This document shows positions 3,810 through 52,419 of a stretch of 64,000 bases of DNA, piece after piece. Source of the stretch: a virus; IMG/VR virus record IMGVR_UViG_3300040801_002923, positions 54,482 to 118,481 of that record. One strand, written 5' to 3'. The translations under genes were made by a program, and so were the position numbers. The notes below the pieces were generated by a model. It did no database searches. It saw only the letters and a program-made list of their open reading frames with translations, and had not been told where the DNA came from. The stretch's first letter is position 1, and each line of letters starts with the position of its first letter.

Positions 3810-3810
3810 C

Positions 3811-3850: not shown

Positions 3851-3865
3851 AGGAGGAAAATAGCA

Positions 3866-5007: not shown

Positions 5008-5021
5008 ATCCTCTGTATCAT
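4993..5021 (+). promoter_or_regulatory. Sigma70-like promoter for the HD-kinase gene
   Basis: TTGCAC-17 nt-TATCAT. Confidence 0.5.
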
Positions 5022-5047
5022 GCGACTCAACTTCTGAGGATAGAAAC

Positions 5048-27317: not shown

Positions 27318-27778
27318 GCGCACTAGATCGCATTGTAGGCAACATCCACCGTCTCCCCGCCGTACTCGAAGAGTATGAGCGGGGCCTTGACCAGGAGACA
27401 GTTGAAGCAAACCTTGCGATCAAAGGGAAGGTACTCGAAGTAGCCAATACCGAACAAGCGGGTTGGCTACTCTATTACTCCTCACGCAAGGCTGAGCTGT
27501 ACGCTCTTCTTAAATGGCTGGAGGGGCAACTGTCCGCCGTTCGAGGCAAGCACTTTCGCGCGTATACCGAACACTATCAGCGCGAGCTATCAGACCGACA
27601 AAAGGACAAGTACATCGACAATGAGCAAGATGTACAAGTGCAGCTGGAATTGTACCTCACAGTTAAAGAGATGCACGATCGCTATGAAGCTGTAGTTGAT
27701 GCGTTTCAAGCGAGAGGTTTCGCACTGCGAAACATCACCGAACTAAGAATAAGAAGTCTTGAAGACTCAGTAATTTAA
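27314..27778 (+). CDS. uvsY: Recombination mediator UvsY-like
   Basis: Helical 154 aa protein with KYID.E...RGFAL.NI..LR pattern, directly upstream of uvsW. Confidence 0.75.
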   Translation: MSALDRIVGNIHRLPAVLEEYERGLDQETVEANLAIKGKVLEVANTEQAGWLLYYSSRKAELYALLKWLEGQLSAVRGKHFRAYTEHYQRELSDRQKDKYIDNEQDVQVQLELYLTVKEMHDRYEAVVDAFQARGFALRNITELRIRSLEDSVI

Positions 27779-30822: not shown

Positions 30823-31566
30823 ATGGCAATCGGCGATTGGGGTATCATTAATTCCATCAAGAGCGCAAGCAACGGACTAGATCCTGACAATTACACGTAC
30901 ACATCTGGTACTTCAGGTGACTATATGTGGTACGCCATGCGCGAAAACCTAGCAAAGACGTGGAACGGATCGCAGTGGGTTCACACCCCTGCGCATAAGC
31001 TTGATGGACACACCGAACAGCTATCCGCTGATCATCCTGAAGATCCTCCGTCGGATTTGCCAGGACCATCCGACGAGTACATTTCCGTAGCAGATTTCAA
31101 GCGGGCGGTCACCAAGATTGTGCGCAACAAGGGTGGTGCCTTACCCGACGTTTCAGATTGGAAAGAAATCAAACAGCTAATGGACAAGCTGTATGATATT
31201 GAGCTACACGGAAATGTACCCCAGCCATCCAAGGTGGATGCCTTGCCTCCCGCTCCGCAGGAAGATGAGGTATGGAAAGACGGGGTATATAATCCCCAGT
31301 CTCTTCAAGAAGACTATTACTTTGGTGGAACTATTGGAAGTTTGGCTGCCGTCCCTCCCATGACGCATGCAGCGGTGTGTGATTCAATTCAAGTAGGAAA
31401 CGTAGGATTCGATCCCCGCGTAGAATCTCTCACTGTTTCTAACATGACGGTGGCAGCACAGGTTGAGGCCAGTCTTGTGGATATTGAGAGTGAAATCTGC
31501 GACCGCCTCGCCAAACGGCTTAGAGCAGAGATAGATCAACGTTGCACCACAGGAGATTGGAAATAA
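30823..31566 (+). CDS. Hypothetical protein
   Basis: 247 aa ORF in an operon. Confidence 0.6.
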   Translation: MAIGDWGIINSIKSASNGLDPDNYTYTSGTSGDYMWYAMRENLAKTWNGSQWVHTPAHKLDGHTEQLSADHPEDPPSDLPGPSDEYISVADFKRAVTKIVRNKGGALPDVSDWKEIKQLMDKLYDIELHGNVPQPSKVDALPPAPQEDEVWKDGVYNPQSLQEDYYFGGTIGSLAAVPPMTHAAVCDSIQVGNVGFDPRVESLTVSNMTVAAQVEASLVDIESEICDRLAKRLRAEIDQRCTTGDWK

Positions 31567-31997
31567 TGGCCAGTAAAGTAGAGAAGCTAAAAGCTCTGCT
31601 TGAGGCACTAGATCTCATGCAGGAAGAAGAGGAGTGGACGCCCACACCCAAGCAGTGGAAGCGCATTCGCTCGCTAATTGAGGACCTCGATGAAGAAGCA
31701 CCAGCACCAGCAGCTGAAGCACCAGTACGTTTCGTAGGTGCAGATCGAGCAGGATCTGGGGCACGGCCAGCTGGTCGATCGAATCCCTGGGCCGATGGTA
31801 CCGCTCGTATGCCAGAAGTACCATCCGCGATTCCCGAAGGAGCAGAGCGCTTGGCACCAACGGGCACATCTGCACTAGCCCCCCAGGGGTCTGCGCTAAG
31901 ACCACAGGGAGGTGTTGCCAACCCAAATCAACCTATCGGAATGTTAGAGGATGGCACACCTGTACACGATTCCCATCCAGGAAGCCCTGGACTGTAA
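31566..31997 (+). CDS. Hypothetical protein with Pro/Ala-rich C-terminus
   Basis: AGGAG RBS and TAATG coupling give the start MASKVEKL. Confidence 0.65.
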   Translation: MASKVEKLKALLEALDLMQEEEEWTPTPKQWKRIRSLIEDLDEEAPAPAAEAPVRFVGADRAGSGARPAGRSNPWADGTARMPEVPSAIPEGAERLAPTGTSALAPQGSALRPQGGVANPNQPIGMLEDGTPVHDSHPGSPGL

Positions 31998-32529
31998 CCT
32001 ATTCACGGAGCTAAAGGACCGTGTCCTGTTTTTCGACGGCGATATGGTTGTTCCCTCATCAGAAGTAACAAAGTTTCTCAAATTAGCCAGCACTGGCAAA
32101 CTCTGCGTTACCGAAACGACGCCAGATATAGAGATGTTTAATTCAGTGTCTGACGTGCCGATCAGGCAGAAAGAAGATGTCACAATACCTGATCTCGCGT
32201 GGAATCTTCCTGACCCCTGGAACAGCCTGGATGTCGAAGCGTACATATATGAGCGCTTCGAAGAAGAGCTGCAGAATGATTCAACTGTGGCTGTAAATGC
32301 TAAAGTGTATCTGAAGAGAGTTGAAGAAGAGATTGAGGCCTATCGGGACCTTAAACTCTACGCGCTGCTCCGGGCAGTCATATATACGGTAAGTACACTT
32401 CGTAGCTATAATGTCGTGTGGGGAGTTGGTAGAGGAAGTAGCGTATCTAGCTACGTATTGTATTTAGTCGGAGTACATGACGTAGATAGCGTTTTCTTCG
32501 AACTAGACTACACCGACTTCCTACGCTAA
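31951..32529 (+). CDS. DNA polymerase III alpha (DnaE)-like N-terminal palm fragment
   Basis: YLKRVEEEI...VVWGVGRGSSVSSYVLYLVGVHDVD...ELDYTDFLR matches DnaE Y..RL..EL...GPGRGS..GSLVAY.LGIT..DP...L.FERFL; start uncertain. Confidence 0.85.
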   Translation: MAHLYTIPIQEALDCNLFTELKDRVLFFDGDMVVPSSEVTKFLKLASTGKLCVTETTPDIEMFNSVSDVPIRQKEDVTIPDLAWNLPDPWNSLDVEAYIYERFEEELQNDSTVAVNAKVYLKRVEEEIEAYRDLKLYALLRAVIYTVSTLRSYNVVWGVGRGSSVSSYVLYLVGVHDVDSVFFELDYTDFLR

Positions 32530-32542
32530 CAGGGAGAACCGT

Positions 32543-32896
32543 ATGGGTAAGAAAGTAAGATCAATGCGTGGCCAGCTGATCGATTGGGATCTAGCGATGG
32601 TCAAGAACGAAATGAAGAAAAAGCCTGCACCACTTAACGTCACCAACCGTCAAGATTTCATCGATGCAAAACTTCGCCGCCGAGTTAAGAAAGTCCGAGA
32701 TGATCTAAGCAAGGTTGAGGCAGCTAAGGTTGAACGAGAAATTGCTTCACCGCCTGTTGAAGAACAACCACTAATCGATGAAGCTGTGGACAAGACTAAT
32801 GCAGATGCACCTGAGACAGCAGTGGTTGATGAAGATACCACAGCAACAACTCATCGGACGGTTCGCAGGAAGTCTCAAACCTCCAAACCTAAGTAA
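32543..32896 (+). CDS. Hypothetical basic protein
   Basis: GGGAG RBS, 117 aa. Confidence 0.65.
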   Translation: MGKKVRSMRGQLIDWDLAMVKNEMKKKPAPLNVTNRQDFIDAKLRRRVKKVRDDLSKVEAAKVEREIASPPVEEQPLIDEAVDKTNADAPETAVVDEDTTATTHRTVRRKSQTSKPK

Positions 32897-32905
32897 GGAA
32901 CATAC

Positions 32906-33226
32906 ATGGATACAACAGTTTTTGACGAGATTGAGGTACTAGACGGATTTATCCTTTTCCAATTTGAAGAGGAGATTGATCCGAGTCGCCACAACGCCTT
33001 TACGGAGAAGACACAATCAGGTATCATTCTGCCGTCTAACCCACTTACCGCAGGTCAATATGCTCGGTGGGCTACTGTTGTAGCTGTTGGTCCAAATGTT
33101 CCAGAAGACGTAGTGCCTGGATCAAAAGTCTGCATCGAAGCTCTAAAGTGGACGAAGGTCAGCACATACAAAGGCGAAGAGTTCGCACGAACTGAAGCCA
33201 AGTTTATTCTTGCCGTGGGAGAATAA
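32906..33226 (+). CDS. GroES-like co-chaperonin, divergent (T4 gp31-like role)
   Basis: EKTQSGIILP...ATVVAVGP....VVPG..V...ILAV. Confidence 0.8.
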   Translation: MDTTVFDEIEVLDGFILFQFEEEIDPSRHNAFTEKTQSGIILPSNPLTAGQYARWATVVAVGPNVPEDVVPGSKVCIEALKWTKVSTYKGEEFARTEAKFILAVGE

Positions 33227-34590
33227 TGCTAGCCGCTGTTCTTGCTTTCCTAACCTCGCTCGCACTGGCCGGTGTTGCTGCATACTTCAGCATCACTGGT
33301 CTAATGGCTATTTTTGCCGCATTGCCTGTTTCCATTGCTGTAATGGCGGGTGTTCTTGAAGTTGGAAAACTGGTTACAGCTAGTGTTTTGTACCGGAACT
33401 GGTCAACAATTCCGTGGTCGTTGAAAACATATCTATCATCAGCTGTTGTCATCCTGATGTTGATTACATCGCTTGGAATCTTCGGATACTTGAGCAAAGC
33501 GCACCTTGATCAAAACGCTCCTGTGTCAACCAACCTCGCTCGCGTCGAGCGCATTGAGGCTCGAATAGAGCAACAAGAGCGTGTGATTGCTGATGCAGAC
33601 GCCGAAATTGAGATACTTGACGGTATCGTTGCCACTTTGATTGAGTACGATAAGATCAGTGGTCCAGATGGGTCTCGCGCTGTCCGTGCTAGCCAACAAG
33701 AACAGCGCGATGAGCTCACTGATAGAATCGACGCCGCACAAGACCGCATCGAAGAATTGCAGGACGAGAAGTTCGAGTACGAGCAGGAAGTCCGCGATTT
33801 TGAAACAGAAGTCGGCCCAATTAAGTACATCGCAGCGCTTGCGTACGACAACCCAGCTGACCATTACGATTCGGCTGTTCGTGGAATCATTCTACTGTTA
33901 GTGTTTGTGTTCGACCCCCTAGCTGTGCTTCTGTTGATTACTGCAAACATGCTACAGATGCAGCACCGCAACCCAAATCCCGATGACCCCGATGGTTTGG
34001 AAGAATTGTTCGACCCTGCAGAAGAAGTCGAACATGACCCCGCTCCCCGTAACCTTGTTGAGTTTTATCAGGACCCATCCATTCCGTTCACCTTGACGGA
34101 GGATGACCATCCTCCGCCCCCACCAATGCCCGAGAACACCGAGTGGAAAGAACATGATGTCAACATTGACAACGACTTGGGATCGGTTGAAGATGCATTC
34201 TTTAATGCGGAGATTCTAGATGAAAACAATGGACCAAAAGCTAGCGCTAGCGAGGAGCCTCAGGAGCTACCGTGGCGGATCCAAGTCCAAGAAGAGTGGG
34301 ACGAAGAAGAGGAGTCCATCGAGACTGCTGTCTCAGAGACATTGGACAGACAAGAACATGCCGGTGAAAAAGAAGAAGTACTCAACAGCGCCGAAAACAC
34401 GATGCCAGACACCCTCGACCGAGAGCGTAGATTCGACCCAAGATCAGTACAGCTACGAGAACGAATCGCGCGCCAGCACGAGGCGCTCGAGAGAGTCGCA
34501 GGATCAACCGATCGGAATCGCGTCGGCGGCACTCGCGTTGTTCCTCCTGTCATAGCAGACGTTACGGAAAACGGTACACGTATTAGTTGA
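33226..34590 (+). CDS. Membrane protein with 3+1 TM helices, coiled coil and acidic tail
   Basis: AAYFSITGL..IF...LEVGKLV.AS, LITSLGIFGYLSKAH, EVGPIKYIA, FVFDPLAV motifs recognised from T4-like phage membrane proteins. Confidence 0.75.
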   Translation: MLAAVLAFLTSLALAGVAAYFSITGLMAIFAALPVSIAVMAGVLEVGKLVTASVLYRNWSTIPWSLKTYLSSAVVILMLITSLGIFGYLSKAHLDQNAPVSTNLARVERIEARIEQQERVIADADAEIEILDGIVATLIEYDKISGPDGSRAVRASQQEQRDELTDRIDAAQDRIEELQDEKFEYEQEVRDFETEVGPIKYIAALAYDNPADHYDSAVRGIILLLVFVFDPLAVLLLITANMLQMQHRNPNPDDPDGLEELFDPAEEVEHDPAPRNLVEFYQDPSIPFTLTEDDHPPPPPMPENTEWKEHDVNIDNDLGSVEDAFFNAEILDENNGPKASASEEPQELPWRIQVQEEWDEEEESIETAVSETLDRQEHAGEKEEVLNSAENTMPDTLDRERRFDPRSVQLRERIARQHEALERVAGSTDRNRVGGTRVVPPVIADVTENGTRIS

Positions 34591-34616
34591 CACCCGATAC
34601 GCTACCCGACTATAAT
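34587..34616 (+). promoter_or_regulatory. Consensus sigma70 promoter for the clamp loader operon
   Basis: TTGACA-18 nt-TATAAT. Confidence 0.8.
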
Positions 34617-34646
34617 CAGCTGATAACAATAAGGAGAAACAGCTGA

Positions 34647-35570
34647 ATGCCGGGTGCTCACGCTCTGTGGGTCGAGAAGTATAGACCCACCACGCTAGAC
34701 GGATACATCTTCCACGACGAGTCGCACAAGCGTGCTTTTGTGCGAATGGTTGCAGATCGCAGTATTCCACATCTCCTACTCACAGGAATTCAAGGTGCTG
34801 GTAAAACAACGATTGCACGCATACTGATCAACGAACTCGAAGTAGACGAACTTGATGTTCTATACATCAACGCCTCCGAAGAGAACTCAGTCGACACCAT
34901 TCGCGACAAGATCAAAAGCTTCGTCTCCACCTTTGCTCTCGGTGATTTCAAAGTCATTCTACTTGACGAGGCCGACTTCATTACACTGAACGGTCAAGCG
35001 ATTCTCCGCAACCTAATGGAAGCGTACAACGAGACTACCCGCTTCATTCTTACGTGCAACTACGAGCACAAGATCATGCCGCAGATTGTATCGCGGTGTC
35101 AGCATTTTCGCTTCAAAGCAGGTAACCGCGACGATATCACTGAGTACGTAGCTCAAATCCTCATACAAGAAGGGGTAAAGTTCGATCTGGATACACTGGA
35201 CCGTTACATCAGCCTTGCATATCCGGACGTCCGTAAGATCGTCAACTCACTTCAGCAGAATGTATACGAGGGCGCTCTTCATGACCCGATTGGTATGGCT
35301 GATTCTGGCGACTACAAGCTAGAGTTGCTGGGGAAGATTGAGGCAGGCGATTGGCACGGCGCGCGCGAAATTTGTTGCGGGGCCGTGGTAGCTGAGGAAT
35401 GGGAAGACGTATATAGGTTCATTTACGAAAATGCACACAAGGCGTTTAAGGATCAGGCTAAGTGGGAAGCTGCAATCGTCGTTGTAGCAGAGCACTTGTA
35501 CAAACATGGTATATGCGCCGATCCAGAGATCAACGCGGCGGCGATGTTTATTTCGCTGTCGACAATTTAG
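34647..35570 (+). CDS. Clamp loader AAA+ subunit (gp44/RFC small subunit-like)
   Basis: LWVEKYRP, GIQGAGKTT, INASEE, LLDEAD, SRC arginine finger. Confidence 0.95.
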   Translation: MPGAHALWVEKYRPTTLDGYIFHDESHKRAFVRMVADRSIPHLLLTGIQGAGKTTIARILINELEVDELDVLYINASEENSVDTIRDKIKSFVSTFALGDFKVILLDEADFITLNGQAILRNLMEAYNETTRFILTCNYEHKIMPQIVSRCQHFRFKAGNRDDITEYVAQILIQEGVKFDLDTLDRYISLAYPDVRKIVNSLQQNVYEGALHDPIGMADSGDYKLELLGKIEAGDWHGAREICCGAVVAEEWEDVYRFIYENAHKAFKDQAKWEAAIVVVAEHLYKHGICADPEINAAAMFISLSTI

Positions 35571-35579
35571 GAGTCTAAA

Positions 35580-36341
35580 ATGAAATTACCGGCACAAACG
35601 TTACAAACTTGTAGCGTTAAAATTAGTCATACAGGTACGCATGAAATTACAGCTTCAATTGAGTACAATGTAGCAGAATCGCGCCACCCGACGGAGAACG
35701 ACTACGCAACGTTGTATGTTAATGGTCAAGTTGTAGCATCTAATTGCGCATCGAAGGTATCTGATAAGGAGTGGTTCTGCGGCGTGGCAGACGGAGACCG
35801 GCGCGTGATGGAAGCCGGTTTCATCTTGCCGTTTCAAGACGGGGATATCGTAGAAGTACATTTTCACGATTCCGAGATGAAACAACTAAGTTACGTCCAT
35901 ACATTTGACATCACCGCGCAATCAATCTTCGAAATTGATTCCATCGAAGATTCCCAATCGCAGGCAGATGATGGTGCAATTACCTTCTGTGATGCTAGTC
36001 TGGGATCGAATGCTAACATTGCTCTCAGTACAATCGACTCGGGGTTGCTTGCGAACGGTTCAATCTCGATTGCCGAAACGTTCGACCGTCACAAGCTACG
36101 GTTCTTTGATGGTAGTCAAGATATCATGTCGATCAATACGATGACAGGTGAGATCGAATTCCACACTGAGCCGTCGGAAGCGGCACGCAAGGCGTGGGAA
36201 ATCATGGCTACAGCGTACTCAGAAATGTTCCCACCAATGAGCGCAACACTTGATGTCGACAAAGAAGCTCGCGAGGAGCTGATCGCACAATTGGAAACCA
36301 ACGACGCTCGGTTTGAGCGAGCAATGAGGATTGTAGAATGA
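35580..36341 (+). CDS. Hypothetical protein
   Basis: AGGAG RBS, 253 aa. Confidence 0.65.
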   Translation: MKLPAQTLQTCSVKISHTGTHEITASIEYNVAESRHPTENDYATLYVNGQVVASNCASKVSDKEWFCGVADGDRRVMEAGFILPFQDGDIVEVHFHDSEMKQLSYVHTFDITAQSIFEIDSIEDSQSQADDGAITFCDASLGSNANIALSTIDSGLLANGSISIAETFDRHKLRFFDGSQDIMSINTMTGEIEFHTEPSEAARKAWEIMATAYSEMFPPMSATLDVDKEAREELIAQLETNDARFERAMRIVE

Positions 36342-36853
36342 ACTGCAGAGACGCCGACAATCTAATCCGCATCAAGGAAGGAGACCCTGACTGGAAGCTT
36401 TATTGTGCTGTCGATGTTCCTTATTGTCCTGATGAAAAGCTACGCGAACGGGTAGATGCTTCCGCAGCGCTACAAACGGATATGCTGTACTCAGGCACGC
36501 TATGGAAACTCAAGGCCGCTAGACCTAACTGTACGATCTGGAATCGTGTTAGTGACTGGGTTGCCCCCGCCGTTACGCAGTACAATCCTGAAGGCCGATA
36601 CGGAGGAATGCGAACCAGACTAACGTTCCACTTCGGCGGTGACCACTATAGAGCGGGCATATATGCGGCCCGAGTCAGCTGGATTGACGATGAAACGGGT
36701 CTAGCTGCTCCAATTGGAAAACCTAGATTGATTGGCAAGGCACGTGTTGAAGCCGGTCCTCCTGTGCGAGCTGAGTCAATTCGCGATATGAATAGGTACA
36801 TTCATGAACTGCTCACTGCAGAACGATACAAGTATGCCATGGAGATTGTATGA
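36338..36853 (+). CDS. Hypothetical protein
   Basis: ATGA coupling, 171 aa. Confidence 0.6.
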   Translation: MNCRDADNLIRIKEGDPDWKLYCAVDVPYCPDEKLRERVDASAALQTDMLYSGTLWKLKAARPNCTIWNRVSDWVAPAVTQYNPEGRYGGMRTRLTFHFGGDHYRAGIYAARVSWIDDETGLAAPIGKPRLIGKARVEAGPPVRAESIRDMNRYIHELLTAERYKYAMEIV

Positions 36854-37140
36854 GTAAGAAACTGATTGAACGTGTAGCCAATACACCAAATCGAAGTGAT
36901 AAGGTGTCGTGGAACCGCAAAATGGACAACATGGTGAAGCTAATCGCCAAGATGTCTGCGCTTGAGGAGCAAGCAGCAGACATCGAAGCTCAGAAGATGC
37001 CGATCTTCGATGAAATTCAAGAGCTCCGTGAAGTGATGGTTCGTGAATGCATTCACCCGCTTCAATACCTCGTTGAGCACGAAGATCACATCCTCTGCAA
37101 GTTCTGCAACACCAAGATTGCTCCAGCTGTCGATGGCTAA
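36850..37140 (+). CDS. Hypothetical coiled-coil protein with CxH...CxxC zinc motif
   Basis: ECIHP...LCKFCN. Confidence 0.65.
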   Translation: MSKKLIERVANTPNRSDKVSWNRKMDNMVKLIAKMSALEEQAADIEAQKMPIFDEIQELREVMVRECIHPLQYLVEHEDHILCKFCNTKIAPAVDG

Positions 37141-37612
37141 ACAACGCGCACTTGACATCTTCAATCTGCTCTCTAACATCAGTACAAAGCGAAGAGAGCA
37201 CTTTGATGCTCTCACGGAGCAGGAACTCAAGGAGATGCAACCATATGTGGTTATGCGCTGGCTGACCGGTACGTTCGATGCGCAACAGATTTATTTCATC
37301 AACGAGCTTGTCAACCCCTTCGTGTTTGAGTTGCGAGATAAGCGATTGCTGTACTACCTACTGACGATCGCCGCGGCTGGAAAAAATCAACGCTATAAGT
37401 GGATTAAGCCAGCTTCTCGCAAGGGAACAGGGTTATCGACAACGATGTTAGTAATCAAGAAAACCTATAACTACACCACCAAGCAAGCCACAGAAGTGTT
37501 GCCGATACTGACAAACGAACAGATCATGCAGCACGCGGAGGATCTTGGTCTTCAGAAGGAGGAGATCGCCCAACTCCGTAAAGAGCTGAAGACCCGTAAT
37601 GGCAAAGTATAA
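37133..37612 (+). CDS. Clamp loader small subunit (T4 gp62-like)
   Basis: PYVVMRWL...INELVN...YKWIK...YNYTTKQATEVL.ILT pattern; start MAKQRAL. Confidence 0.65.
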   Translation: MAKQRALDIFNLLSNISTKRREHFDALTEQELKEMQPYVVMRWLTGTFDAQQIYFINELVNPFVFELRDKRLLYYLLTIAAAGKNQRYKWIKPASRKGTGLSTTMLVIKKTYNYTTKQATEVLPILTNEQIMQHAEDLGLQKEEIAQLRKELKTRNGKV

Positions 37613-38279
37613 ATTCCGATGCAAATTCTGTGGATCTGGCTTCGTTCGTGAAGACAGATACCTCAAACATCGCTGCAAAGCAATGGAGCGTGACGAAGAA
37701 ATTCGCACGCCCGTTGGGCAAGCAGCATGGGAGTACTATAAGCTTTGGATGACCCTTCAGCGTCGCCAACCACCGACGATCCAGACCTTTCTTGATTCGC
37801 GCTTCTACACGTACATGATTAAGTTCGCTAAGTTTGTGAACAAGGTTGGTATTCCAGACGCGAAACTGTACATCAAGTACATGATTAGGCAGCAGACGCC
37901 GCCTATGCTGTGGACAAACGATGAGATCTACAGTGAGTATTTGCAATACTTGGATCGCGGTAGGGATCCAATGGGGCAGGTACAATACACTATCGACTTC
38001 TTATTCAAGGTAGCTGATGCAATTGAGTGTGACGTAGGCGACATATTCGATCACCTAGATCCCGACGAAGTGATCATGATGCTACGCCGCCGACAACTAA
38101 CTCCTTGGATTCTGTTGCATTCTCAGAAGTTCCGACAGTTTACTCAAGATAAGATGTCGACCGATCAGAAGATGGTGTTCAAAACTGTCGTCAAGCCTGA
38201 AACATGGGTAAAGCGCAGAAAGGACAATCCTGAGCTCGTTGCTCAAATGAAAGAAATCGTCCGTGAACTGAACTTGTAA
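37599..38279 (+). CDS. Hypothetical protein with N-terminal C2HC zinc finger
   Basis: FRCKFCGSGF.RE....KH.C. Confidence 0.7.
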   Translation: MAKYKFRCKFCGSGFVREDRYLKHRCKAMERDEEIRTPVGQAAWEYYKLWMTLQRRQPPTIQTFLDSRFYTYMIKFAKFVNKVGIPDAKLYIKYMIRQQTPPMLWTNDEIYSEYLQYLDRGRDPMGQVQYTIDFLFKVADAIECDVGDIFDHLDPDEVIMMLRRRQLTPWILLHSQKFRQFTQDKMSTDQKMVFKTVVKPETWVKRRKDNPELVAQMKEIVRELNL

Positions 38280-38314
38280 GTCCGCCTAAATACGGCACAA
38301 GTTTTCACGGATGG
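38257..38314 (+). promoter_or_regulatory. Late promoter in the loop of a long RBS-occluding hairpin
   Basis: TCCGTGAA/TTCACGGA, AACTTGT/ACAAGTT and GCC/GGC stems enclosing TAAATA at 38287-92. Confidence 0.7.
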
Positions 38315-38317
38315 AAG

Positions 38318-39622
38318 ATGTCAGATACATACTACCTCTATTACGCCGACGGCGCGTTTGCGGGAGCTGTCGAGCCGGGCACCACAGTTACTCTCAATGA
38401 TTTGAAGCTAGATGGGTTTCAGAAACCCATCTATGGCGAACGACGTAACAACAACCTGATTAAACTCCTCACACACTTTGCTAGTGAGGAAGATCCGTCC
38501 AATCCCGGAAACCCACCTCCAGAAGTGATCGCAGCTCCTCGTCCAGGCCAGCTGTGGTTCAACCGAACGCCAAACCCACCTTCTTACCCCAATGGACAGC
38601 TGTTACTGTTCGATGGTAGCGTTAACCAGTGGGTAGAAATTGGGACCGACATTTATTCGATCGATGCTGTTGGCACATCTGGTACTGTGACAATCAACAA
38701 GATTGCGGCTTCAGAACCACCTACAGAGATTACAAATATTGCGCCAAGAGACCTATTCGAAGCGCATGTAGTTGAAACCACAGATGTGCACACGTCTGGT
38801 CAAATTGAAGTAAATCCTGCAATCAACGGTCAAGAGGATGTGCAAAACGCTATTGCTGCTCTTGCTATCCCCACCCAACTTCACATCGACATGCTGACCG
38901 GTGCTCACGCTAGTGAGCACATCTCTATTGCTGGAATTCCAGGTCTAATTGCAACTGATACCAGAGCAGCGATTGACGAGCTTCAATCAGACATCAACAC
39001 CCTGAGCTCGACGGTTGGTGGGTCGGGCGCTTCGCTGATTGCCCACATCAACAGCGGCACCGACGCGCACGACGCAGAGGCAATATCCTTTGATAACGCA
39101 GTTACAGGATTTTCTGCAACAAACGTAGAAGCCGCGCTCGTCGAACTCAACAACAACGCCAACGTATCTTCGGCGAGTAACGTACTCGATAGTTTGCGTG
39201 TATTTCGGTCAACCAACCAGACGCTAAACAGTACCGCCGGAAACAAGGTGCTGTTCAACCAGCAAACGGTTGGGATTGGAACACTGGGTGCACAATATAA
39301 CACCATTACCGGCCGGTATACAGCAGCATATGATCAGATCATCAGGGTCCGCGTGACGCTGAGATTCCAAGGCATTCAAAATGAAAACTACTCTTTCGGA
39401 GAGATTCGCAGAAATGGGTCTGTGCAACGACGCGCTCAGATGTACGAGTGGTCAGAAAATACACCCCTAGCTGGCACAGTCGCATTCTCATGCTTGGTTG
39501 AACTGTCAGCTGGTCAATATATCGAAGTGTTTGCGGGGCGAAATAATCCAGGATCGCATAACTTAATCGGTGGTTCGTCTTCCACATACATGGAAATTGA
39601 TATTCTGAGGGATCTATCATGA
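38318..39622 (+). CDS. Short tail fibre with C1q-like head, paralog 1
   Basis: G....YGE..N.NL..LL.HFA...GQLWF anchor, AHDA.AI repeats, C1q-like C-terminus. Confidence 0.75.
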   Translation: MSDTYYLYYADGAFAGAVEPGTTVTLNDLKLDGFQKPIYGERRNNNLIKLLTHFASEEDPSNPGNPPPEVIAAPRPGQLWFNRTPNPPSYPNGQLLLFDGSVNQWVEIGTDIYSIDAVGTSGTVTINKIAASEPPTEITNIAPRDLFEAHVVETTDVHTSGQIEVNPAINGQEDVQNAIAALAIPTQLHIDMLTGAHASEHISIAGIPGLIATDTRAAIDELQSDINTLSSTVGGSGASLIAHINSGTDAHDAEAISFDNAVTGFSATNVEAALVELNNNANVSSASNVLDSLRVFRSTNQTLNSTAGNKVLFNQQTVGIGTLGAQYNTITGRYTAAYDQIIRVRVTLRFQGIQNENYSFGEIRRNGSVQRRAQMYEWSENTPLAGTVAFSCLVELSAGQYIEVFAGRNNPGSHNLIGGSSSTYMEIDILRDLS

Positions 39623-40974
39623 GCGACAGATATCTACTAACGTTCGCTGATGGCCAGTTTATCGGTTTTGTTGAACCAAACGATAGGCTCAACGTTGGTG
39701 GGTTGGTTATTACAGGTCGTGGTGACAGTCCGTATGGCGATCACCGTAACGAAAACCTACTACACCTACTTGAGAACTTTGCTAGTGACGAAGTTGCTCC
39801 GGATACCCCCGACTCAACTATTATCGGCATCCCTGTCGTAGGTCAAACGTGGTTCAACAAAGCAACCAACAGCCTGCTGGTATTTAACGGCGTAGAATGG
39901 ACTAACGTATCAATCGATCGACACGTTACTACTTCTGACGATACGCGCTTGGTGTCGGACGGTATCATTGAACTGGAACGCAATCTGCCGGTAACAGGTC
40001 TACCGGATCTGGTGATCGAGAACATTTTGCATAACACAGAGCCAGGATTACCGATACCGCTGGGTCCTGGTGGCTTCCAGCAACATCTGGTCCAAAATCC
40101 TGCACACGCAGGGACATCAGTTTCATTCATCCCTATATCAGTCAATCCTCCGGCTGTCCTTATATCAGCAACCAACGCACAAGATGCGCTGGTACAAACC
40201 TACACGCTCATTAATGACCACATCAACAATACAGTTGCCGCACACGACGCCTCCGCAATAGGATATATCGGTGCTGTACCAGAACCCAATGTCCAGCTGG
40301 CTCTAGAAAATCTCGATACACAGCTAGACACTATCAGCGGCGACATTGGTGGGGGTAGTGGTGATCTTCAAGATCACATCGATGATCTGTCAGATGCGCA
40401 CGATGCGTCGGCTATTTCTCTCCCTGTGGGACTGGGCATTGCAGGTAACCCAACGAATGTCCAAGATGCTATCGAGATCATCAATACTATCGTTGGCGTA
40501 GGCACTTCAGGACTACTTGAAGTTACTCGAGCAACTGCGGCTGGGGGACAGGTAATTGGTGCATCTACCAAACTTAACTTCACCAACGTAGTACTTGGTA
40601 ACGCCTCCAATCAATTTTCAACCGCAACTAGCACATATACAGCAGCGTTTGATCAAGAAGTAAACATTACAGCGGCCTTATTGTACAACATTCCAAACAA
40701 CACTCTATCGTCAACATTATCTATTCGCGTTAACGGTGTTCAACGGGCCTCGTGGACTACGGCTAACAGTTCTAACACTGTTAGCCCGTCGTTGATCGAT
40801 GCTGACTTTGGCTTTGAGCTTCACCTTAAAACGATATTGTCTGCAGGTGATACAGTTGAGATCTTCGCGTCTGCTGATAACCCTTCAGTTGTCCAAGTAA
40901 CAGATAGAGCAGGTGCGCTCCTTGCAGGAGCCGGTACATCGGTTGAGTTCGATATTGTAAGAGATCTATCATAA
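39619..40974 (+). CDS. Short tail fibre with C1q-like head, paralog 2
   Basis: GRG...YG..RNENLLHLLENFA...GQTWF, AHDASAI repeats. Confidence 0.75.
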   Translation: MSDRYLLTFADGQFIGFVEPNDRLNVGGLVITGRGDSPYGDHRNENLLHLLENFASDEVAPDTPDSTIIGIPVVGQTWFNKATNSLLVFNGVEWTNVSIDRHVTTSDDTRLVSDGIIELERNLPVTGLPDLVIENILHNTEPGLPIPLGPGGFQQHLVQNPAHAGTSVSFIPISVNPPAVLISATNAQDALVQTYTLINDHINNTVAAHDASAIGYIGAVPEPNVQLALENLDTQLDTISGDIGGGSGDLQDHIDDLSDAHDASAISLPVGLGIAGNPTNVQDAIEIINTIVGVGTSGLLEVTRATAAGGQVIGASTKLNFTNVVLGNASNQFSTATSTYTAAFDQEVNITAALLYNIPNNTLSSTLSIRVNGVQRASWTTANSSNTVSPSLIDADFGFELHLKTILSAGDTVEIFASADNPSVVQVTDRAGALLAGAGTSVEFDIVRDLS

Positions 40975-42269
40975 TGGCTAATACGTACACAATTACATCT
41001 AGCGACGGTACGTTTGATTTTCTCGTCGATGAATCAACCGAGGTACAGCAGTACGGACTCACATTCACGGGGAGAGGCGTCACTAATTATGGTGCGAGCA
41101 GAAACCAAAACCTCCTACTACTGTTGGATAATTTTGCAAGTGCAAACACAAGTGAACCAGTGCCGTTGCTTGGTAGATTGTGGTATGACACCACCGATGA
41201 CACATTAAAATTATGCGACGATGGAGCTAATTTCAACACGTTCGGAGATGACATCTATCTGTTGGGCGTCACGCGAGGTATCTCTGGCAATACAGTCTTG
41301 CTTCCCCGAGCTAATGCTTCTGATATAAATCTGTCGCCGACGGCAAACATCGCGCAGCAGAATGAACTATTGGACCACTTTAACGGAACGGAGTCGCACA
41401 GGGCGGATGCGATTTCATTACCAGCAGGCCTTGGTATTCCAACGAACCCAACGAACGTGCAAGCCGCGCTGGCACAAATCGATCTGGTGCTTGATAATCA
41501 CTTAGCGCTAGTCAACAGTCGCCACACCGCGTCGGCAATTCGTGTTAACCCAGCGGTACTGAGTGAGAACAACGTACAAGACGCTCTCGAAGCGTTGAAT
41601 TCGCGGCGTCAAACGCTACAAGCCTCCGCCGGTGGGGGGTCGAGTGCGGTCACCGCTCACATCAACGACCCAACAGATGCGCACGATGCAACAGCCATAT
41701 CTTTCGACAATACTGGCGTTGTTCCACCAATGGCCAGTACAGATGTGCAAGACGCCATCGAGGAAATCAATACCAATATTGGAGCTCTACCAACAGCTGT
41801 TGGCTACGTAGACGTTGCACGGGCTTATGCGGTATCGAGCACCTCAATTACCCCAACCCCATCCACGTGGACGCCACTCAACACGAGTACGGTACTCTTT
41901 GGAGACGACTTCAACAACTTCAGTGGGGGTGTATACACCGCCGATCGCAACATGCTGGTTCGGATTCGGGGGTATGCCACATTTGAATTTGGAGCAACTA
42001 ACCCGTTTGCTTCACAGGAAGCGGGATTACGGATCACCGTGAACGGTAACATGGTTCGCCGTGGCAGCGAGCCCAGAAAGGGAAGTACGTCTGTGCTTCC
42101 TGTTCGCATATACGTCGAATGCTCCGTTGTTGCTGAGCTTGCAGCGTCCGATCAAGTGAGACTTGAAGCCACAACTCTAAAAACATCTGGTGTGGAACCG
42201 GAAGGATCTACTGTACTTGGTGGCTTCTCCAACAACTCACTTGAGATCGAAGTTCTAGCAGAGCTTTAA
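40974..42269 (+). CDS. Short tail fibre with C1q-like head, paralog 3
   Basis: GRG..NYG..RNQNLL.LLDNFA...GRLWYD, AHDATAI repeats. Confidence 0.75.
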   Translation: MANTYTITSSDGTFDFLVDESTEVQQYGLTFTGRGVTNYGASRNQNLLLLLDNFASANTSEPVPLLGRLWYDTTDDTLKLCDDGANFNTFGDDIYLLGVTRGISGNTVLLPRANASDINLSPTANIAQQNELLDHFNGTESHRADAISLPAGLGIPTNPTNVQAALAQIDLVLDNHLALVNSRHTASAIRVNPAVLSENNVQDALEALNSRRQTLQASAGGGSSAVTAHINDPTDAHDATAISFDNTGVVPPMASTDVQDAIEEINTNIGALPTAVGYVDVARAYAVSSTSITPTPSTWTPLNTSTVLFGDDFNNFSGGVYTADRNMLVRIRGYATFEFGATNPFASQEAGLRITVNGNMVRRGSEPRKGSTSVLPVRIYVECSVVAELAASDQVRLEATTLKTSGVEPEGSTVLGGFSNNSLEIEVLAEL

Positions 42270-42326
42270 GGACCCCTAGAGCACCACGAGTAAATACGCC
42301 GCACGTATTGAGGAAAAATGCGCTAA

Positions 42327-44600
42327 ATGGCAAATCCAGAAGACTACATCATCAGATTTACGGATCCTGTTCGTAGTGACGGTCAAGTTGTAAGCTCTAC
42401 CGAAGCACCTACGTTTATCATTCGTCCGTTTACAGTAGATGGTCCACAACACCCAACGCTTAATCAGGTGTTTTCGGATCCCGAGACAGGCACCGGTGTT
42501 AGTAAGCGATCTCCTGTTGTACTGTACGGTAAAGGTATCCCTCAGTACGGCGAACAGATGGCAAACAACTGGTTGCAATCTGTTGAAAACTTTGCTGGAT
42601 CTACTCCTCCTTTGGGATCTGCAGCTATCCCCGGCGTGGCGTGGTTCCAAGACGAGCGGTATTGGTTCAATACCGCTCTAGGCACGTTGTTTGTGTGGTC
42701 TGATGCCACTGACGAATGGCTGCCTCAAGCGGTTACCGTTCAAGGACCTGTACCAACCGCAGCAGGAACTGTTGGCGACTATATCTACGCAACAGACACG
42801 GGGGAACTTTTCCTCTACTACGAGTGGACAGATTACACCCCTGCGTTCGGTGGGTGGATTCAGCGTCTCGTTCGACAAGAGATCGTTGATGCGCCTAACC
42901 CTGTAGTAAATCCAGCGGATTTGCCGCGACGTACGCTAAGTGTATACGATCCGACTGTTGGTACCGAAGGGTTCAACAAACTGCTATCGTATCGTGGTAA
43001 CGACGCGGGCGATCCGGTTCTTGGAGATCTGCACGTCGGCGGCGAGGGGTTCTTCGCTGGAACGGTTACCGCAGCTGCGCCAACACTCGATACGCACTTA
43101 GCCACAAAGCAATATGTTGATGGTGAAATTAGCATTGCGATTGGCGGCAACAATCAACTTCACGAGCTGCTCGATGTTGATACAGGAATCAACGCATTAT
43201 CTACGCCACCGGCCGATGGTGATGCCTTTTTCTTCGACACCAGTCTTGGAGGTACATTCGGAGGTGAGGCGTATCCCGGTAGGTGGACGGCCCGCGGAAT
43301 CGTATCTGCAGACATTGGCGATCTAACAGCGACAATCAATGCGGGTATCGGTGGAGCCTCTCTGACCGACTTGGCAAACGTAGACGTCCCCGCACCGAGC
43401 AATGACCAGATTCTCAGCTTCAATAACGTTTCAGGCAGCTGGGAAGCGCGCAACGAGCGTTTTGTACTGGGTACAGCCGAAGCAACGTCATATACAGTTA
43501 CGAGTAACGAAATCACGCTAAATCGAAACGACGGTAGCACAGTTGTTATCGGTGATGTTTCAGCAGCTAGCGATCTTAGCGCCCACATTGGTGCAACTAT
43601 CGCCCACGATGATACTCAGATTGATTGGACAGGTGGTGCTCTGCCTAATGCAGCCAGCACACCTAACAACATTCAGGAAGCGGTTATAGCAGTTGACGCA
43701 GCTCTTGCTTCTGCTGGCGCTATTGGATACACCTCTCTGGGCGGTGGTGGAACAAATGGTAGCGGCTCAGCCGATTCATCCACGGGACTCGGTTCCATTC
43801 AATTTGTTTCTAACACAGCAGCTATTGGCATTACTGTAGCCAACGGTTCGCCAGTCGACACAGTAACATTCACTTTCAGTGATGCAGGAATCAACCATGA
43901 CGCCCTTTTGAACTTTGTCGCAAACGAACATATTGATCACGCATCGGTTAATATCAACTCCGGTGCAGGTCTAACGGGTGGTGGCAACATCACAACGTCC
44001 CGAACGCTGTCCCTCGACACGAGTAACTCTAGAAACGTTGACCACAACGCAGTCAGCATTAATGCCGGTACGGGGTTGACTGGTGGTGGCACAATTGCTT
44101 CGTCCCGAACAATCAACCTGACCAACACCGGTGTAGCAGCAGGGTCATATACAAACCCCAACATTACCGTCGACGCACAGGGGCGAATTACGTCTGCAGC
44201 AAATGGATCGGGTGGATCTGGTGTTACGGAATCAGGCACTTCAGCTGCGTTCACACCAAACGGTGGCACAAATATTGGGATTGTGAATCCTTTGAGTGGA
44301 CCACCCGATATGTTCCAATGCGTACTGGTTTGCCAGAGTCCTGACCAAGGATATGCAGCTGGGGACATCATTGTGTTGAATCCCCAAGGTGTAGATTTCG
44401 ATGAAGCGGGCGGCCAATCGACATATGGTGGTAAAGTTGCTTATGACTCCAGCTCGGACCAATTCCGTGTAAGCTTCTACTCGCACACAGTTGCTCCTGG
44501 TCTTGCTATTCTTGTGCAACCATTTGCGACAGCAACTTCTGCAATGGCCACAATCGTATCAGCAAACTGGCAAGGCTTCATTAAGGCGATAAGGTTTTAA
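42327..44600 (+). CDS. Tail fibre protein
   Basis: Same anchor motif (GKG..QYGE..ANN.L..VENFA), ATKQYVD, GAGLTGGG repeats, AGSYTNPNITVDAQGRIT.A. Confidence 0.8.
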   Translation: MANPEDYIIRFTDPVRSDGQVVSSTEAPTFIIRPFTVDGPQHPTLNQVFSDPETGTGVSKRSPVVLYGKGIPQYGEQMANNWLQSVENFAGSTPPLGSAAIPGVAWFQDERYWFNTALGTLFVWSDATDEWLPQAVTVQGPVPTAAGTVGDYIYATDTGELFLYYEWTDYTPAFGGWIQRLVRQEIVDAPNPVVNPADLPRRTLSVYDPTVGTEGFNKLLSYRGNDAGDPVLGDLHVGGEGFFAGTVTAAAPTLDTHLATKQYVDGEISIAIGGNNQLHELLDVDTGINALSTPPADGDAFFFDTSLGGTFGGEAYPGRWTARGIVSADIGDLTATINAGIGGASLTDLANVDVPAPSNDQILSFNNVSGSWEARNERFVLGTAEATSYTVTSNEITLNRNDGSTVVIGDVSAASDLSAHIGATIAHDDTQIDWTGGALPNAASTPNNIQEAVIAVDAALASAGAIGYTSLGGGGTNGSGSADSSTGLGSIQFVSNTAAIGITVANGSPVDTVTFTFSDAGINHDALLNFVANEHIDHASVNINSGAGLTGGGNITTSRTLSLDTSNSRNVDHNAVSINAGTGLTGGGTIASSRTINLTNTGVAAGSYTNPNITVDAQGRITSAANGSGGSGVTESGTSAAFTPNGGTNIGIVNPLSGPPDMFQCVLVCQSPDQGYAAGDIIVLNPQGVDFDEAGGQSTYGGKVAYDSSSDQFRVSFYSHTVAPGLAILVQPFATATSAMATIVSANWQGFIKAIRF

Positions 44601-44601
44601 C

Positions 44602-45141
44602 ATGAATACACTAGCAGCACTTGAACACCTCGGCTTTGTAAATGGTACCGATTTCACTGTTTCTTTCGACGGCACTCTTACGTGGCTGTCCGCTAGCTCA
44701 CAGCCTACCGAACAGGAGATTGTTGATGCGTGGGACCAGATACAGATTGACGTATCGGGACAGGAGTTTGCTCTCAAACAAGCGCTATGTCTGCACGACA
44801 TTGACACGCTGGCTGAGCAGAAGCGACTAACCTATATCTCAGCTGGTAACGGACAAGTTCTCGTTTATGAAAAAAAGGAACAACAAGCGCAGGCATTCAA
44901 AGATGGTGGGTATGCTAATCCAGAAAATTATCCTTTTGTGCAGAAAGAAGCGGCTGCCGTGGGGTTAACACCAACCGAAATGGCTGACCTGATTCTTCTC
45001 AGAGCAAGTGAATGGGAAAATGTGGGATCGTCCATTGAAGCACTGCGCCGCGCTGCTAAAATTGCCGTCGAAGCAGCGATCAATACTCCAGAAATCGAAG
45101 GAATCATGACGCAATACCAAACGGATCTTGACGCGATCTAA
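44602..45141 (+). CDS. Tail fibre assembly chaperone-like protein
   Basis: W....QPT..EI N-terminus; Q...YE.K..QA, IEALRR.AK..V..A; follows a fibre gene. Confidence 0.7.
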   Translation: MNTLAALEHLGFVNGTDFTVSFDGTLTWLSASSQPTEQEIVDAWDQIQIDVSGQEFALKQALCLHDIDTLAEQKRLTYISAGNGQVLVYEKKEQQAQAFKDGGYANPENYPFVQKEAAAVGLTPTEMADLILLRASEWENVGSSIEALRRAAKIAVEAAINTPEIEGIMTQYQTDLDAI

Positions 45142-45156
45142 TCGCCCTGGTATAAT
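45128..45156 (+). promoter_or_regulatory. Sigma70 promoter giving a probable leaderless mRNA
   Basis: TTGACG-17 nt-TATAAT with TG extension; the A of ATG 45163 lies 7 nt after the -10 box; no SD. Confidence 0.75.
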
Positions 45157-45162
45157 GTCGGT

Positions 45163-45738
45163 ATGGATATTGACATTGACTTTCCTTCCGACTTTGACCC
45201 ACTTACCATCTTCGATGCTACCAGAGCGTCGATGGTTAAGAACGGCAACTTGGTCAAGCATCCGGTTGGTATCTATTTTCAGAATATTCCAACCGACTCG
45301 CTAACGGGATTAGCCGCGATTCCGCATAAAGAAGCTCAGGATCTTGGATATCTGAAGATTGACTTTCTGCACTTGACTATCCTGGACAACTTCAACAACA
45401 AAGAAGAAATTCGGCAGTTGATGAAGATTCCTCCCGATTGGTCTTTACTGCAAGATCCAGAGGTAGTGCCCAAGTTGTTTCAGCTTGGTAGACAAGGTCA
45501 GCTCCTGGCTAAAACCAAACCCCAATCGATTCAGGAGCTAGCTGAAACGATCGCTCTAATCCGCCCCGGAAAACGTGAACTCGTGCCAGCCTATCTCAAA
45601 GACCCGGACGCTGTGCGCCCGTACCTGTACACTAAACCTGAGAACGGAAAGCAGTATTACAAGAAGTCGCATGCAATTGCTTATGCATTGACGATTGTTC
45701 TTCAGTTACACCTCATCAAAGGTGGGATCATCCCATAA
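45163..45738 (+). CDS. DNA polymerase III alpha (DnaE)-like catalytic fragment
   Basis: MDIDIDF, KHPVGIY, GYLKIDFLHL, LFQL, KPQSIQELA..IALIRPG, KKSHAIAYA. Confidence 0.9.
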   Translation: MDIDIDFPSDFDPLTIFDATRASMVKNGNLVKHPVGIYFQNIPTDSLTGLAAIPHKEAQDLGYLKIDFLHLTILDNFNNKEEIRQLMKIPPDWSLLQDPEVVPKLFQLGRQGQLLAKTKPQSIQELAETIALIRPGKRELVPAYLKDPDAVRPYLYTKPENGKQYYKKSHAIAYALTIVLQLHLIKGGIIP

Positions 45739-45746: not shown

Positions 45747-46097
45747 ATGAGAATCTTCGAAGACCGCACAGCAGCCATACTATCGCCCACACTTCATCAG
45801 AAGATAGTGTTGGCTAAAATTCACGTTTCTGCAAACCCCGAGGTCGCGGGACGCGCAATTTCTGCTGACGGCAAATTAGTCGCCGCGCGTGACATTCTAG
45901 CTCGGTTAGGGATGATTGAGTATTCCGACAAAGGCGCTCGATTGACTGCTCAGGGTGAGGAGCTTATGGCAAACGTAAGTCCGCCTCTTATTGACGAAAC
46001 AGGTTCTTTGACTCCCGAAGGCGAAAAGCTAGCTAAAGATGGGACGCAACAAACGGAAAGTATTTTCCGATCTATAGCTCGACAGTTGCGTTCTTAA
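45747..46097 (+). CDS. Hypothetical late protein
   Basis: TAAATA 5 nt before ATG; LT..GE.L occurs twice. Confidence 0.65.
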   Translation: MRIFEDRTAAILSPTLHQKIVLAKIHVSANPEVAGRAISADGKLVAARDILARLGMIEYSDKGARLTAQGEELMANVSPPLIDETGSLTPEGEKLAKDGTQQTESIFRSIARQLRS

Positions 46098-46530
46098 TGA
46101 TTTGAACCCCCGCGGGTACAGGTTTGCGGCGACGACGCTTAACGCTGCGGACCTTCTCCATGTCAAACATCGGTAACGGTCCTATTACGCGCGTGACGAA
46201 CTCTGTGTTCATCGTGCGATAGACGGGCGCTAGCTGTCCACCCAGCCCAGCTCTTGCAAACGCCATTGACACGGGGATCGTGCCGTAATCAGGCTCTTTG
46301 AACCACTCATGAGCGGCAGTAATTAGAAGTTCTTCGCTAACCCCCGTTGGACTGCACAGGTCAAGTACGTACGCCCTAATTTGCTTGTCGTCAGCATTGT
46401 CAATTACGGTTAGAGAGTGCTCTTTTCGATACTGAACAAGTGTGATGAATGGATAGCCTGAATAGGTGTCCGGATGCGGTTCGACGATCAGTGGATATGG
46501 ATTGCCGCGCTTCGATCTCTTTCTAGTCAT
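46072..46530 (-). CDS. Hypothetical protein
   Basis: 152 aa; YPFITL...DN...I..YVLD...EW; basic C-terminus. Confidence 0.65.
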   Translation of the reverse strand: MTRKRSKRGNPYPLIVEPHPDTYSGYPFITLVQYRKEHSLTVIDNADDKQIRAYVLDLCSPTGVSEELLITAAHEWFKEPDYGTIPVSMAFARAGLGGQLAPVYRTMNTEFVTRVIGPLPMFDMEKVRSVKRRRRKPVPAGVQIIKNATVEL

Positions 46531-49421: not shown

Positions 49422-49609
49422 CCACATCCGAGTCCACGATCGCTACGCTCCGTCGCGATCATATCAAACATATTCAACAACGCGTTGAAGGTTTGACGAC
49501 AGCGCAGCTTGAAGCTGTTCGGCTGGTCGTGGACAACGCCAGTGATTTTGAGCGATTTATTTGGTTGCTCGGACAATTTGCCAAGAATAAAAGCAGGGAG
49601 AAACTATGA
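49418..49609 (+). CDS. Small hypothetical protein
   Basis: GTGA/ATGA coupling on both sides. Confidence 0.55.
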   Translation: MTTSESTIATLRRDHIKHIQQRVEGLTTAQLEAVRLVVDNASDFERFIWLLGQFAKNKSREKL

Positions 49610-52388: not shown

Positions 52389-52413
52389 ACTTTTTCCGTG
52401 CGATATGTATAAT
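52385..52413 (+). promoter_or_regulatory. Sigma70-like promoter, probable leaderless mRNA
   Basis: (G)TAGACT...TATAAT at 52408-13; the A of ATG 52420 lies 7 nt downstream. Confidence 0.6.
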
Positions 52414-52419
52414 GATCGC

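Follow-up and report, generated by a model that had tools for sequence, protein, structure and literature searches.

The window analysed here, the last 64 kb (64,000 nucleotides) of the 118,481-bp IMG/VR virus record IMGVR_UViG_3300040801_002923, whose completeness is estimated at 34%, carries two short genes, here called A (31951-32529, + strand) and B (45163-45738, + strand). Their products, of 192 and 191 amino acids (383 together), are halves of one family C DNA polymerase catalytic core, the break falling after the FxxFL helix and before the DxD strand. Our best explanation, to which we assign a probability of roughly 0.7, is that A and B make up a phage-specific, split and minimal two-subunit enzyme resembling the alpha subunit of DNA polymerase III (Pol III alpha), which acts as an accessory templated DNA polymerase. 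The enzyme is a family C, Pol-beta-fold nucleotidyltransferase of the group 2.2 large phages, that is, the T4-core phages related to RaK2, XacN1 and Atu_ph07. The pair is a correct rediscovery and not a discovery: a "minimal" Pol III alpha encoded by two genes is described in the passages of Iyer et al. (2021, Viruses 13:63, PMC7824862) on group 2.2 (RaK2/Atu_ph07-like) jumbo phages, and PHROGs already contains both halves.

The identity of A as the N-terminal half is indicated by sequence profiles and by structure. Residues 103-191 match positions 7-94 of the Pfam model PF07733 (Pol III alpha NTPase/palm; E-value 7.3e-9, above the curated cut-off), and the protein falls into phrog_11127, a family of 171 positions labelled DNA polymerase (E-value 1.1e-31). 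A profile of A recovered residues 275-393 of E. coli Pol III alpha (E-value 3.9e-6), and hhalign paired A 91-192 with residues 284-395 of E. coli DnaE at a probability of 94.9%, with the GRGS loops of the two proteins in register. The AlphaFold2 model of A has a mean predicted local distance difference test score (pLDDT) of 89.9. When the AlphaFold2 models were aligned structurally with 48,161 chains, the best seven chains for A 80-192 were family C polymerases without exception (Z 8.9-13.3), followed by a row at Z 4.1; the alignment with 5m1s_A 277-393 reached Z 12.4 with a root-mean-square deviation (rmsd) of 2.4 over 112 aligned residues. Residues 80-192 (32188-32526, + strand) correspond to the helical N-part of the family C palm, approximately E. 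coli DnaE 277-395. The C-terminal region contains WGVGRGSS and closes with ELDYTDFLR, the protein ending in ...WGVGRGSSVSSYVLYLVGVHDVDSVFFELDYTDFLR before the stop codon. Its GVGRGS loop (G158-S163; 32422-32439, + strand) lines up with that of E. coli DnaE, GPGRGS, and is presumably the triphosphate-binding loop; G158, G160, R161, G162 and S163 were invariant in 13 diverse sequences and also in a set of 44. A is therefore, by its match to the palm model and its GRGS loop, a stand-alone palm N-part protein of the kind that defines the N-terminal half of the family.

Ahead of the palm, A carries a family-specific alpha/beta module (residues 1-79; 31951-32187, + strand) at the sequence position that the PHP domain occupies in DnaE. 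No match covering this module was found in Pfam, in the PDB-profile search or in the structural alignment with the 48,161 chains, and the Atlas look-alikes for residues 1-85 were unconvincing (feature scores of at most 0.84, all template modelling scores, TM, below 0.5). L21, D29, G30, N64 and K74 of the module are invariant in the 44 sequences. A 151-amino acid open reading frame in another frame (31542-31997, + strand) overlaps the first 47 nucleotides of gene A, and a GAGG directly abuts its ATG with no spacer; the N-terminus of A is nevertheless conserved among close homologues despite the overlapping frame.

B supplies the catalytic palm strands and the proximal fingers. Residues 93-160 match the Pfam fingers model PF17657 (E-value 2.9e-6, above the curated cut-off), and residues 1-188 fall into phrog_11778 (E-value 2e-65), which has 197 positions and is labelled DNA polymerase. 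With phmmer, B 59-169 was matched to 3e0d_A 610-733 (E-value 0.0058). The AlphaFold2 model of B alone has a mean pLDDT of 81.8, and for residues 65-191 the best seven chains were again all family C polymerases, matched in their proximal fingers (Z 5.7-9.2; next row Z 4.8); against E. coli 5fku_A 559-783 the alignment gave Z 8.4 and rmsd 3.5 over 122 aligned residues. The protein starts with MDIDIDF, followed by HPVG (33-36), KIDFL (65-69), IRPG (133-136) and KSHA (168-171); DIDIDF and HPVG are separated by 25 residues, IRPG and KSHA by 31. A stand-alone protein with a DxD strand, the third aspartate and a fingers subdomain is what characterizes the C-terminal half of the family, and B has all three.

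The catalytic residues of B are strongly conserved. Residue conservation was counted over 80 IMG/VR relatives of B at 39-67% identity, and D2, D4, D6, H33, G36, K65, D67, R134, H170 and Y174 were present in 80 of 80. The metal-binding DxD strand, D2-I-D4-I-D6 (45166-45180, + strand), directly follows the initiator methionine; D4 and D6 were also invariant across 14 diverse sequences, and we take the DxD aspartates to be the equivalents of E. coli D401 and D403. The third catalytic aspartate lies in the KxDFL strand (K65-I-D67; 45355-45363, + strand), which aligns with the VKFDFLGL strand of E. coli DnaE (within 510-642) and with the LKMDFLGL strand of 3e0d_A. The fingers motif R134-P-G-K137 (45562-45573, + strand), aligned with the FRPGP motif of E. 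coli DnaE, retains P135 and K137 in 79 of the 80 relatives each. The last long helix carries H170-AIA-Y174 of the KSHA motif (45670-45684, + strand), a region with a weak local alignment to FNKSHAAAY of 3e0d_A 813-824.

Both families are large and diverged from cultured phages. Among metagenomic proteins of similar length, 1826 homologues of B and 2412 of A were found at E-value ≤0.001, relatives of B are encoded at no fewer than 591 IMG/VR loci, and 34 Escherichia phage records contain B; the closest isolate phages share at most 58% identity with the window copy of B and at most 37% with that of A. The position of the break is constant throughout. The motif G.GRGS occurs in 263 of 268 homologues of A, each of these 263 ending 29-45 residues past it, and the 150 best cluster representatives of A from a search of 1.84 billion proteins are 114-205 amino acids long. 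DxDxD falls within the first 40 residues of all 120 B homologues, with only a methionine ahead of it in 116, and a methionine stands 1-5 residues before the first aspartate in 78 of the 80 IMG/VR relatives. A search for fused or longer forms of B (336-2000 amino acids) gave no homologue at E-value ≤0.001 among 769 candidates, although this is weak evidence. The break is a fixed and ancient feature and not a sign of decay, as judged from these sequences.

Neither the end of A nor the start of B carries a split-intein half. The palm match of A extends to residue 191 of 192 and the DxD strand of B begins at residue 2, which leaves no space for intein halves. Cyanobacterial split DnaE is also encoded by two distant genes, but these carry a split intein and their products are spliced into one full-length protein, whereas the window pair is minimal, has no intein and consists of two chains. 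In the window, A lies upstream of B with a gap of 12.6 kb. Elsewhere the genes are separated by roughly 4-15 kb (RsoM2USA, Xoo-sp13, CM1, RAS14 and XacN1) or by less than 1 kb (the locus L033). In GAP32 and RaK2 the order is reversed, B preceding A by about 33 kb, and larger separations are seen in SCTP-2 (about 116 kb) and Atu_ph07 (about 182 kb). Such variation in order and spacing excludes a single interrupted gene or cis-splicing. No RNA run was among the sequencing runs listed as holding the sequence; the three rows were DNA runs of one study, with shares of 0.15-0.26.

Modelling supports a heterodimer of A and B. The predicted complex had a median ipSAE of 0.86 over three runs, compared with 0.02 for the best of three controls; 58 of 80 solved complexes attain this mark, as do 2 of 110 mismatched pairs, figures that apply only approximately since our own alignments were employed. 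The runs agreed in at least 95% of contacts, and the partner's pLDDT was at least 90. The two ends of the break, A 189-192 and B 1-8, both fall within the predicted interface, and the N-terminal module of A is predicted to pack on B, with its segments 16-32, 42-51 and 78-86 against B 25-54. When B was folded alone, pLDDT fell below 50 at residues 1-5 and 62-66, its two catalytic strands, which fits a sheet that is completed by A.

Compared with E. coli DnaE, the pair retains approximately residues 277-395, the DxD strand, residues 510-560 and a condensed 559-783, and thereby a Pol-beta-fold palm with three catalytic aspartates. It shares with bacterial DnaE (E. coli 2hnh, 5fku) the GRGS loop, the DxD and KxD strands and the RPG and KSH motifs, but differs in having two chains, no PHP domain, no thumb, shortened fingers and the extra 79-amino acid module on A. 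Pfam found no PHP domain in A or B, and in the complete relatives neither PF02811 (PHP; controls positive in 14 of 14) nor HHH_6 (PF14579; controls positive) was found in any of five genomes. The thumb, which in DnaE lies between the DxD and KHxGG strands, is missing, since the 25 residues between DIDIDF and HPVG compare with about 105 in E. coli, where the DxD aspartates are residues 401 and 403 and the aligned strand begins at residue 510. The fingers of B comprise about 125 residues compared with about 225 in E. coli DnaE, about 100 residues of inserts being gone. B ends near the equivalent of E. coli residue 783 with nothing C-terminal beyond it, and the distal fingers, the HhH/beta-binding region and the OB domain are absent from A and B; for the OB domain the statement covers these two proteins, as no genome-wide search for it was made in the relatives. 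Neither a clamp-binding domain nor a conserved clamp motif at the C-terminus can be seen, and the C-termini of B differ among clades. The pair is thus a core without PHP, thumb, distal fingers, clamp-binding and OB domains.

Most of what the original prediction had read from the letters of the window stands. The two reading frames, with their ends and motifs, lie where it had placed them; the spacings that it had put at about 25 and 30 residues count 25 and 31; the absence of an intein agrees with the palm match and DxD positions given above; and the absence of PHP, thumb, HhH and C-terminal domains holds in Pfam, in the structural alignments and in the searches of the five genomes. The catalytic aspartates, whose conservation it had left to be checked, are kept in all 80 relatives, and the heterodimer that it proposed is supported by the complex model.

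The same losses would suit a different activity, in which the Pol-beta-fold active site is all that outlasted the loss of the DNA-gripping domains and the A-B heterodimer works as a non-templated nucleotidyltransferase: a terminal transferase, a modifier of RNA or tRNA 3' ends, or a maker of a nucleotide signal. The absent thumb (25 residues instead of about 105), distal fingers and C-terminal DNA/clamp-binding domains all favour this explanation, as does the richness of the relatives in tRNA and RNA-repair genes described in the abstracts of the XacN1 paper and of Iyer et al. However, R134, K137, H170 and Y174 of the proximal fingers are kept in 79-80 of the 80 relatives, and this is the part regarded as template-binding in the relevant passage of Iyer et al. 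(PMC7824862). Moreover, the gene context is one of DNA replication and recombination, and neither Pfam nor PHROGs places an RNA-related domain in A or B. We consider a non-templated enzyme possible but unlikely.

The accessory role of the split polymerase was assessed from companion genes in 19 long or complete records holding B, comprising five isolate genomes and 14 further records. Both halves occur together in 17 of the 19: A (phrog_11127) was found in all five isolate genomes and in 12 of the 14 further records, including four of the five that are at least 90% complete. A family B polymerase (PF00136) was found in 16 of the 19 (5/5 isolates and 11/14 further records) and in all members of a 10-member subset made up of the five isolates and the five IMG/VR records of at least 90% completeness. 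The window's own record, a 34% complete fragment, has no PF00136 match, so the accessory role rests on the relatives. These counts agree with the view of the original prediction that the pair is unlikely to be the processive replicase; co-occurrence of the halves across phages and a separate family B replicase were checks that it had proposed.

An alternative in which the split core is the main polymerase of the replisome, or one of two obligate ones, serving for instance one strand, would draw its processivity from the clamp and clamp-loader proteins that the phage encodes next to gene A. Such a role would fit the position of A 2.1 kb upstream of the gene for the clamp-loader large subunit, both in the window and in XacN1, and the strong conservation of both halves over the 1826 and 2412 homologues at E-value ≤0.001; the synthesis of one strand is also raised in the passages of Iyer et al. 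(PMC7824862). Nevertheless, the pair has no clamp-binding domain or conserved clamp motif and the C-termini of B vary by clade, a full family B polymerase stands alongside in 16 of the 19 records, and in other clades A lies away from the clamp loader, at distances from B of up to about 182 kb. A replicase role appears improbable on these grounds.

A further reading takes the two frames for relics of a bacterial dnaE that was captured and is now decaying, or for fragments joined by an intein or by trans-splicing. In its favour, each frame encodes a short part of a protein that normally exceeds 1000 amino acids, and the UvsW helicase of the same phage carries an intein-like insert. Against it, length, termini and catalytic residues stay fixed over hundreds of divergent relatives, there is no space for intein halves, and gene order and distance vary; the pseudogene, intein and cis-splicing readings were dismissed, and this origin is very improbable.

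Several results weigh against an accessory templated polymerase made of A and B. Lacking a thumb, the core may be unable to grip a primer-template in the way that DnaE does, and its DNA-templated synthesis is accordingly presumptive. The sequence evidence is weaker for B than for A: hhalign of B against E. coli DnaE 510-642 gave an E-value of 0.0062 with a probability of only 6%, and a narrow profile of B found nothing at E-value ≤0.01 among PDB sequences. The structural alignment fills the gap left by this weak sequence match. Foldseek with A and with B gave no E-value ≤0.001, although the first-ranked matches for both halves were family C polymerases. The complex score may mirror likeness to solved single-chain DnaE structures and not binding. 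A was not found in two of the B-holding records, G001 (90% complete, with B at the contig end) and G012 (33% complete). The window's own record has no PF00136 match, from which, in a record covering about a third of the genome, nothing follows for the family B polymerase. Finally, the literature searched contains no biochemical or genetic study of the split enzyme.

In the mechanism that we propose for the accessory polymerase, A and B would be translated separately and would assemble non-covalently. A would contribute the helical N-palm, the GRGS nucleotide-binding loop and the family-specific N-terminal module; B would contribute the metal-binding aspartates D4, D6 and D67, together with K65 and the fingers residues R134, K137, H170 and Y174. 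The assembled core would act as a template-directed DNA polymerase of low processivity, accessory to the family B replicase, with gap filling, repair, and recombination-linked or one-strand synthesis as possible tasks. Assembly in the cell, catalysis, DNA as the substrate and the accessory role are what we infer from the evidence above. Family C polymerases are the replicases of bacteria, and to our knowledge all those characterized exceed 1000 amino acids. If active, a naturally split core of about 380 amino acids would be the minimal catalytic unit of family C, offering a simple system in which to study its mechanism and evolution, and it would raise the question of why large phages with a T4 core have a second polymerase.

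The original prediction had implied that such a split polymerase was new, which does not hold in view of the earlier description. In the passages of Iyer et al. (PMC7824862) that deal with it, the split Pol III alpha always occurs beside a family B polymerase, and its parts are interpreted as nucleoside triphosphate (NTP)-binding and Mg2+/template-binding subdomains. The same passages suggest that it could cooperate with the family B enzyme in one-strand synthesis or repair, and that the two-chain form could be the ancestral state of family C polymerases instead of a reduced one. As described there, the group 2.2 proteins are, like the window pair, two stand-alone proteins of about 170-200 amino acids encoded by distant genes, with no other Pol III domains in either; the phages that carry them have a T4-like core and a family B polymerase. 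Nothing essential differs between the two pairs; the window pair comes from an uncultured phage record, and in its sub-clade B has a leaderless-type promoter. To those passages the present analysis makes a modest addition: the N-terminal module of A, the leaderless-type promoter, the convergent neighbour of B, a 141-kb phage with both halves, and an exonuclease that is not an obligate companion.

Parts of the system have also appeared in other genome papers. The CBB paper (PMC5259590) lists CBB_328, of 172 amino acids, as a "truncated" Pol III alpha and does not pair it with a second half; CBB_328 and ORF245 of XacN1 belong to the gene family of A. The XacN1 record annotates A (ORF245) and leaves B (ORF228) as hypothetical, and neither the XacN1 nor the RsoM2USA paper discusses a split polymerase. 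A split DNA polymerase with a clamp-derived subunit is reported for chimalliviruses in a bioRxiv preprint (2026, PMC13648687); as far as its searched text goes, this enzyme resembles the window pair in consisting of separate polypeptides and belongs to a different phage group, and a search of that text by term gave no mention of polymerase III, DnaE or RaK2.

The pair is not confined to genomes above 200 kb, since both halves are present in the complete 141-kb genome of an isolate, Alishewanella phage Slicko01. In this phage, positions 3529-5033 match the family B polymerase in two adjacent frames of 578 and 322 amino acids, and that polymerase may be split too; paired family B polymerase frames resembling those of Slicko01 were also seen in two other records (G005 and G011). 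A scan of 185,579 species genomes, made with narrow patterns, gave one relative of B among 86 pattern matches, which is weak sequence-based evidence for a family limited to phages. The single match (L096) lies on a 330-kb contig of a metagenome-assembled genome (MAG) labelled Pseudobdellovibrionaceae, and a contig of this size points to the genome of a jumbo phage that was binned with bacterial sequence.

A DEDDh (DnaQ/epsilon-like) exonuclease is encoded at 55850-56548 (+ strand; PF00929, E-value 2.5e-5; phrog_192, E-value 2.4e-21), and it had been put forward originally as a possible partner of the polymerase. The co-occurrence data do not bear this out: phrog_192 is present in 13 of the 19 records, and no match at E-value ≤1e-5 was found in the complete genomes SCTP-2 and Slicko01, both of which carry A and B. 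As an obligate partner the exonuclease was dismissed on this basis, the search having covered phrog_192 and no other exonuclease families.

Upstream of B is a sigma-70-type promoter-like site, TTGACG-17-TATAAT with an extended TGn element (45128-45156, + strand; 11 of 12 consensus positions), whose -10 hexamer ends 6 nucleotides before the ATG; no Shine-Dalgarno sequence is present. The same geometry (6 nucleotides, once 7) recurs in seven close relatives and, with the window included, is found at 8 of 78 gene starts compared with 27 of 2000 random positions, and a Shine-Dalgarno-like tetramer precedes 42 of the 78 starts. This comparison supports a leaderless mRNA for B in the sub-clade of the window, as originally proposed from its own sigma-70 promoter, to the extent that consensus matches can. 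Nine promoter-like sites in the window score at least 10 of 12, and one other of them (52386-52413, + strand; 10/12) lies 6 nucleotides before an ATG, in this case an in-frame ATG inside the reading frame 52405-52968; the gene may start at this later ATG, as a candidate second leaderless transcript. A perfect sigma-70 consensus (12/12; TTGACA-18-TATAAT, 34587-34616, + strand) stands 30 nucleotides upstream of the gene for the clamp-loader large subunit.

Next to B is a convergent gene (46072-46530, - strand) for a protein of 152 amino acids with a basic C-terminal KRRRRK tail, which belongs to phrog_11637 (E-value 3.1e-18) and for which the Atlas lead is DUF6633 (score 0.91). It is arranged tail-to-tail with B in the window and in six of six isolate phages, and it was found, always on the opposite strand, in 67 of the 76 IMG/VR loci with room for it, staying beside B while A moves around the genome. 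A functional tie to the polymerase is a hypothesis. More speculatively, the A-B core could be completed by the 79-residue module of A, and possibly by this DUF6633-like basic protein, as a three-part machine with a task apart from bulk replication, which might be recombination-primed initiation or specialized repair, and its two-chain form would possibly be ancestral; we hold this picture as a tentative and rather unlikely one.

The neighbours of A include genes for a gp32-like single-stranded DNA-binding protein, UvsX, UvsW and the clamp loader. The UvsW-type helicase (27778-30327, + strand; 849 amino acids; UvsW_N, ResIII and Helicase_C) is broken at about residues 124-505 by a LAGLIDADG/Hom_end segment, which also matches the PHROGs of intein-bearing terminases; the helicase at the equivalent position in XacN1 has 513 amino acids, and the insert is probably an intein with a homing endonuclease. 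Between A and B, the region 38318-44600 (+ strand) encodes three tandem paralogues of about 430-450 amino acids with a common N-terminal motif, followed by a protein of 757 amino acids. Pfam matches none of these four, PHROGs gives one of them a weak match with no function assigned, and an equivalent run of paralogues (ORF233-237) lies between A and B in XacN1. Downstream of B are genes for a FolE2-type GTP cyclohydrolase I (49606-50697, + strand; E-value 4.3e-57), an Fe/Mn superoxide dismutase (51792-52388, + strand) and a dCTP-deaminase/dUTPase-like protein (54485-55048, + strand).

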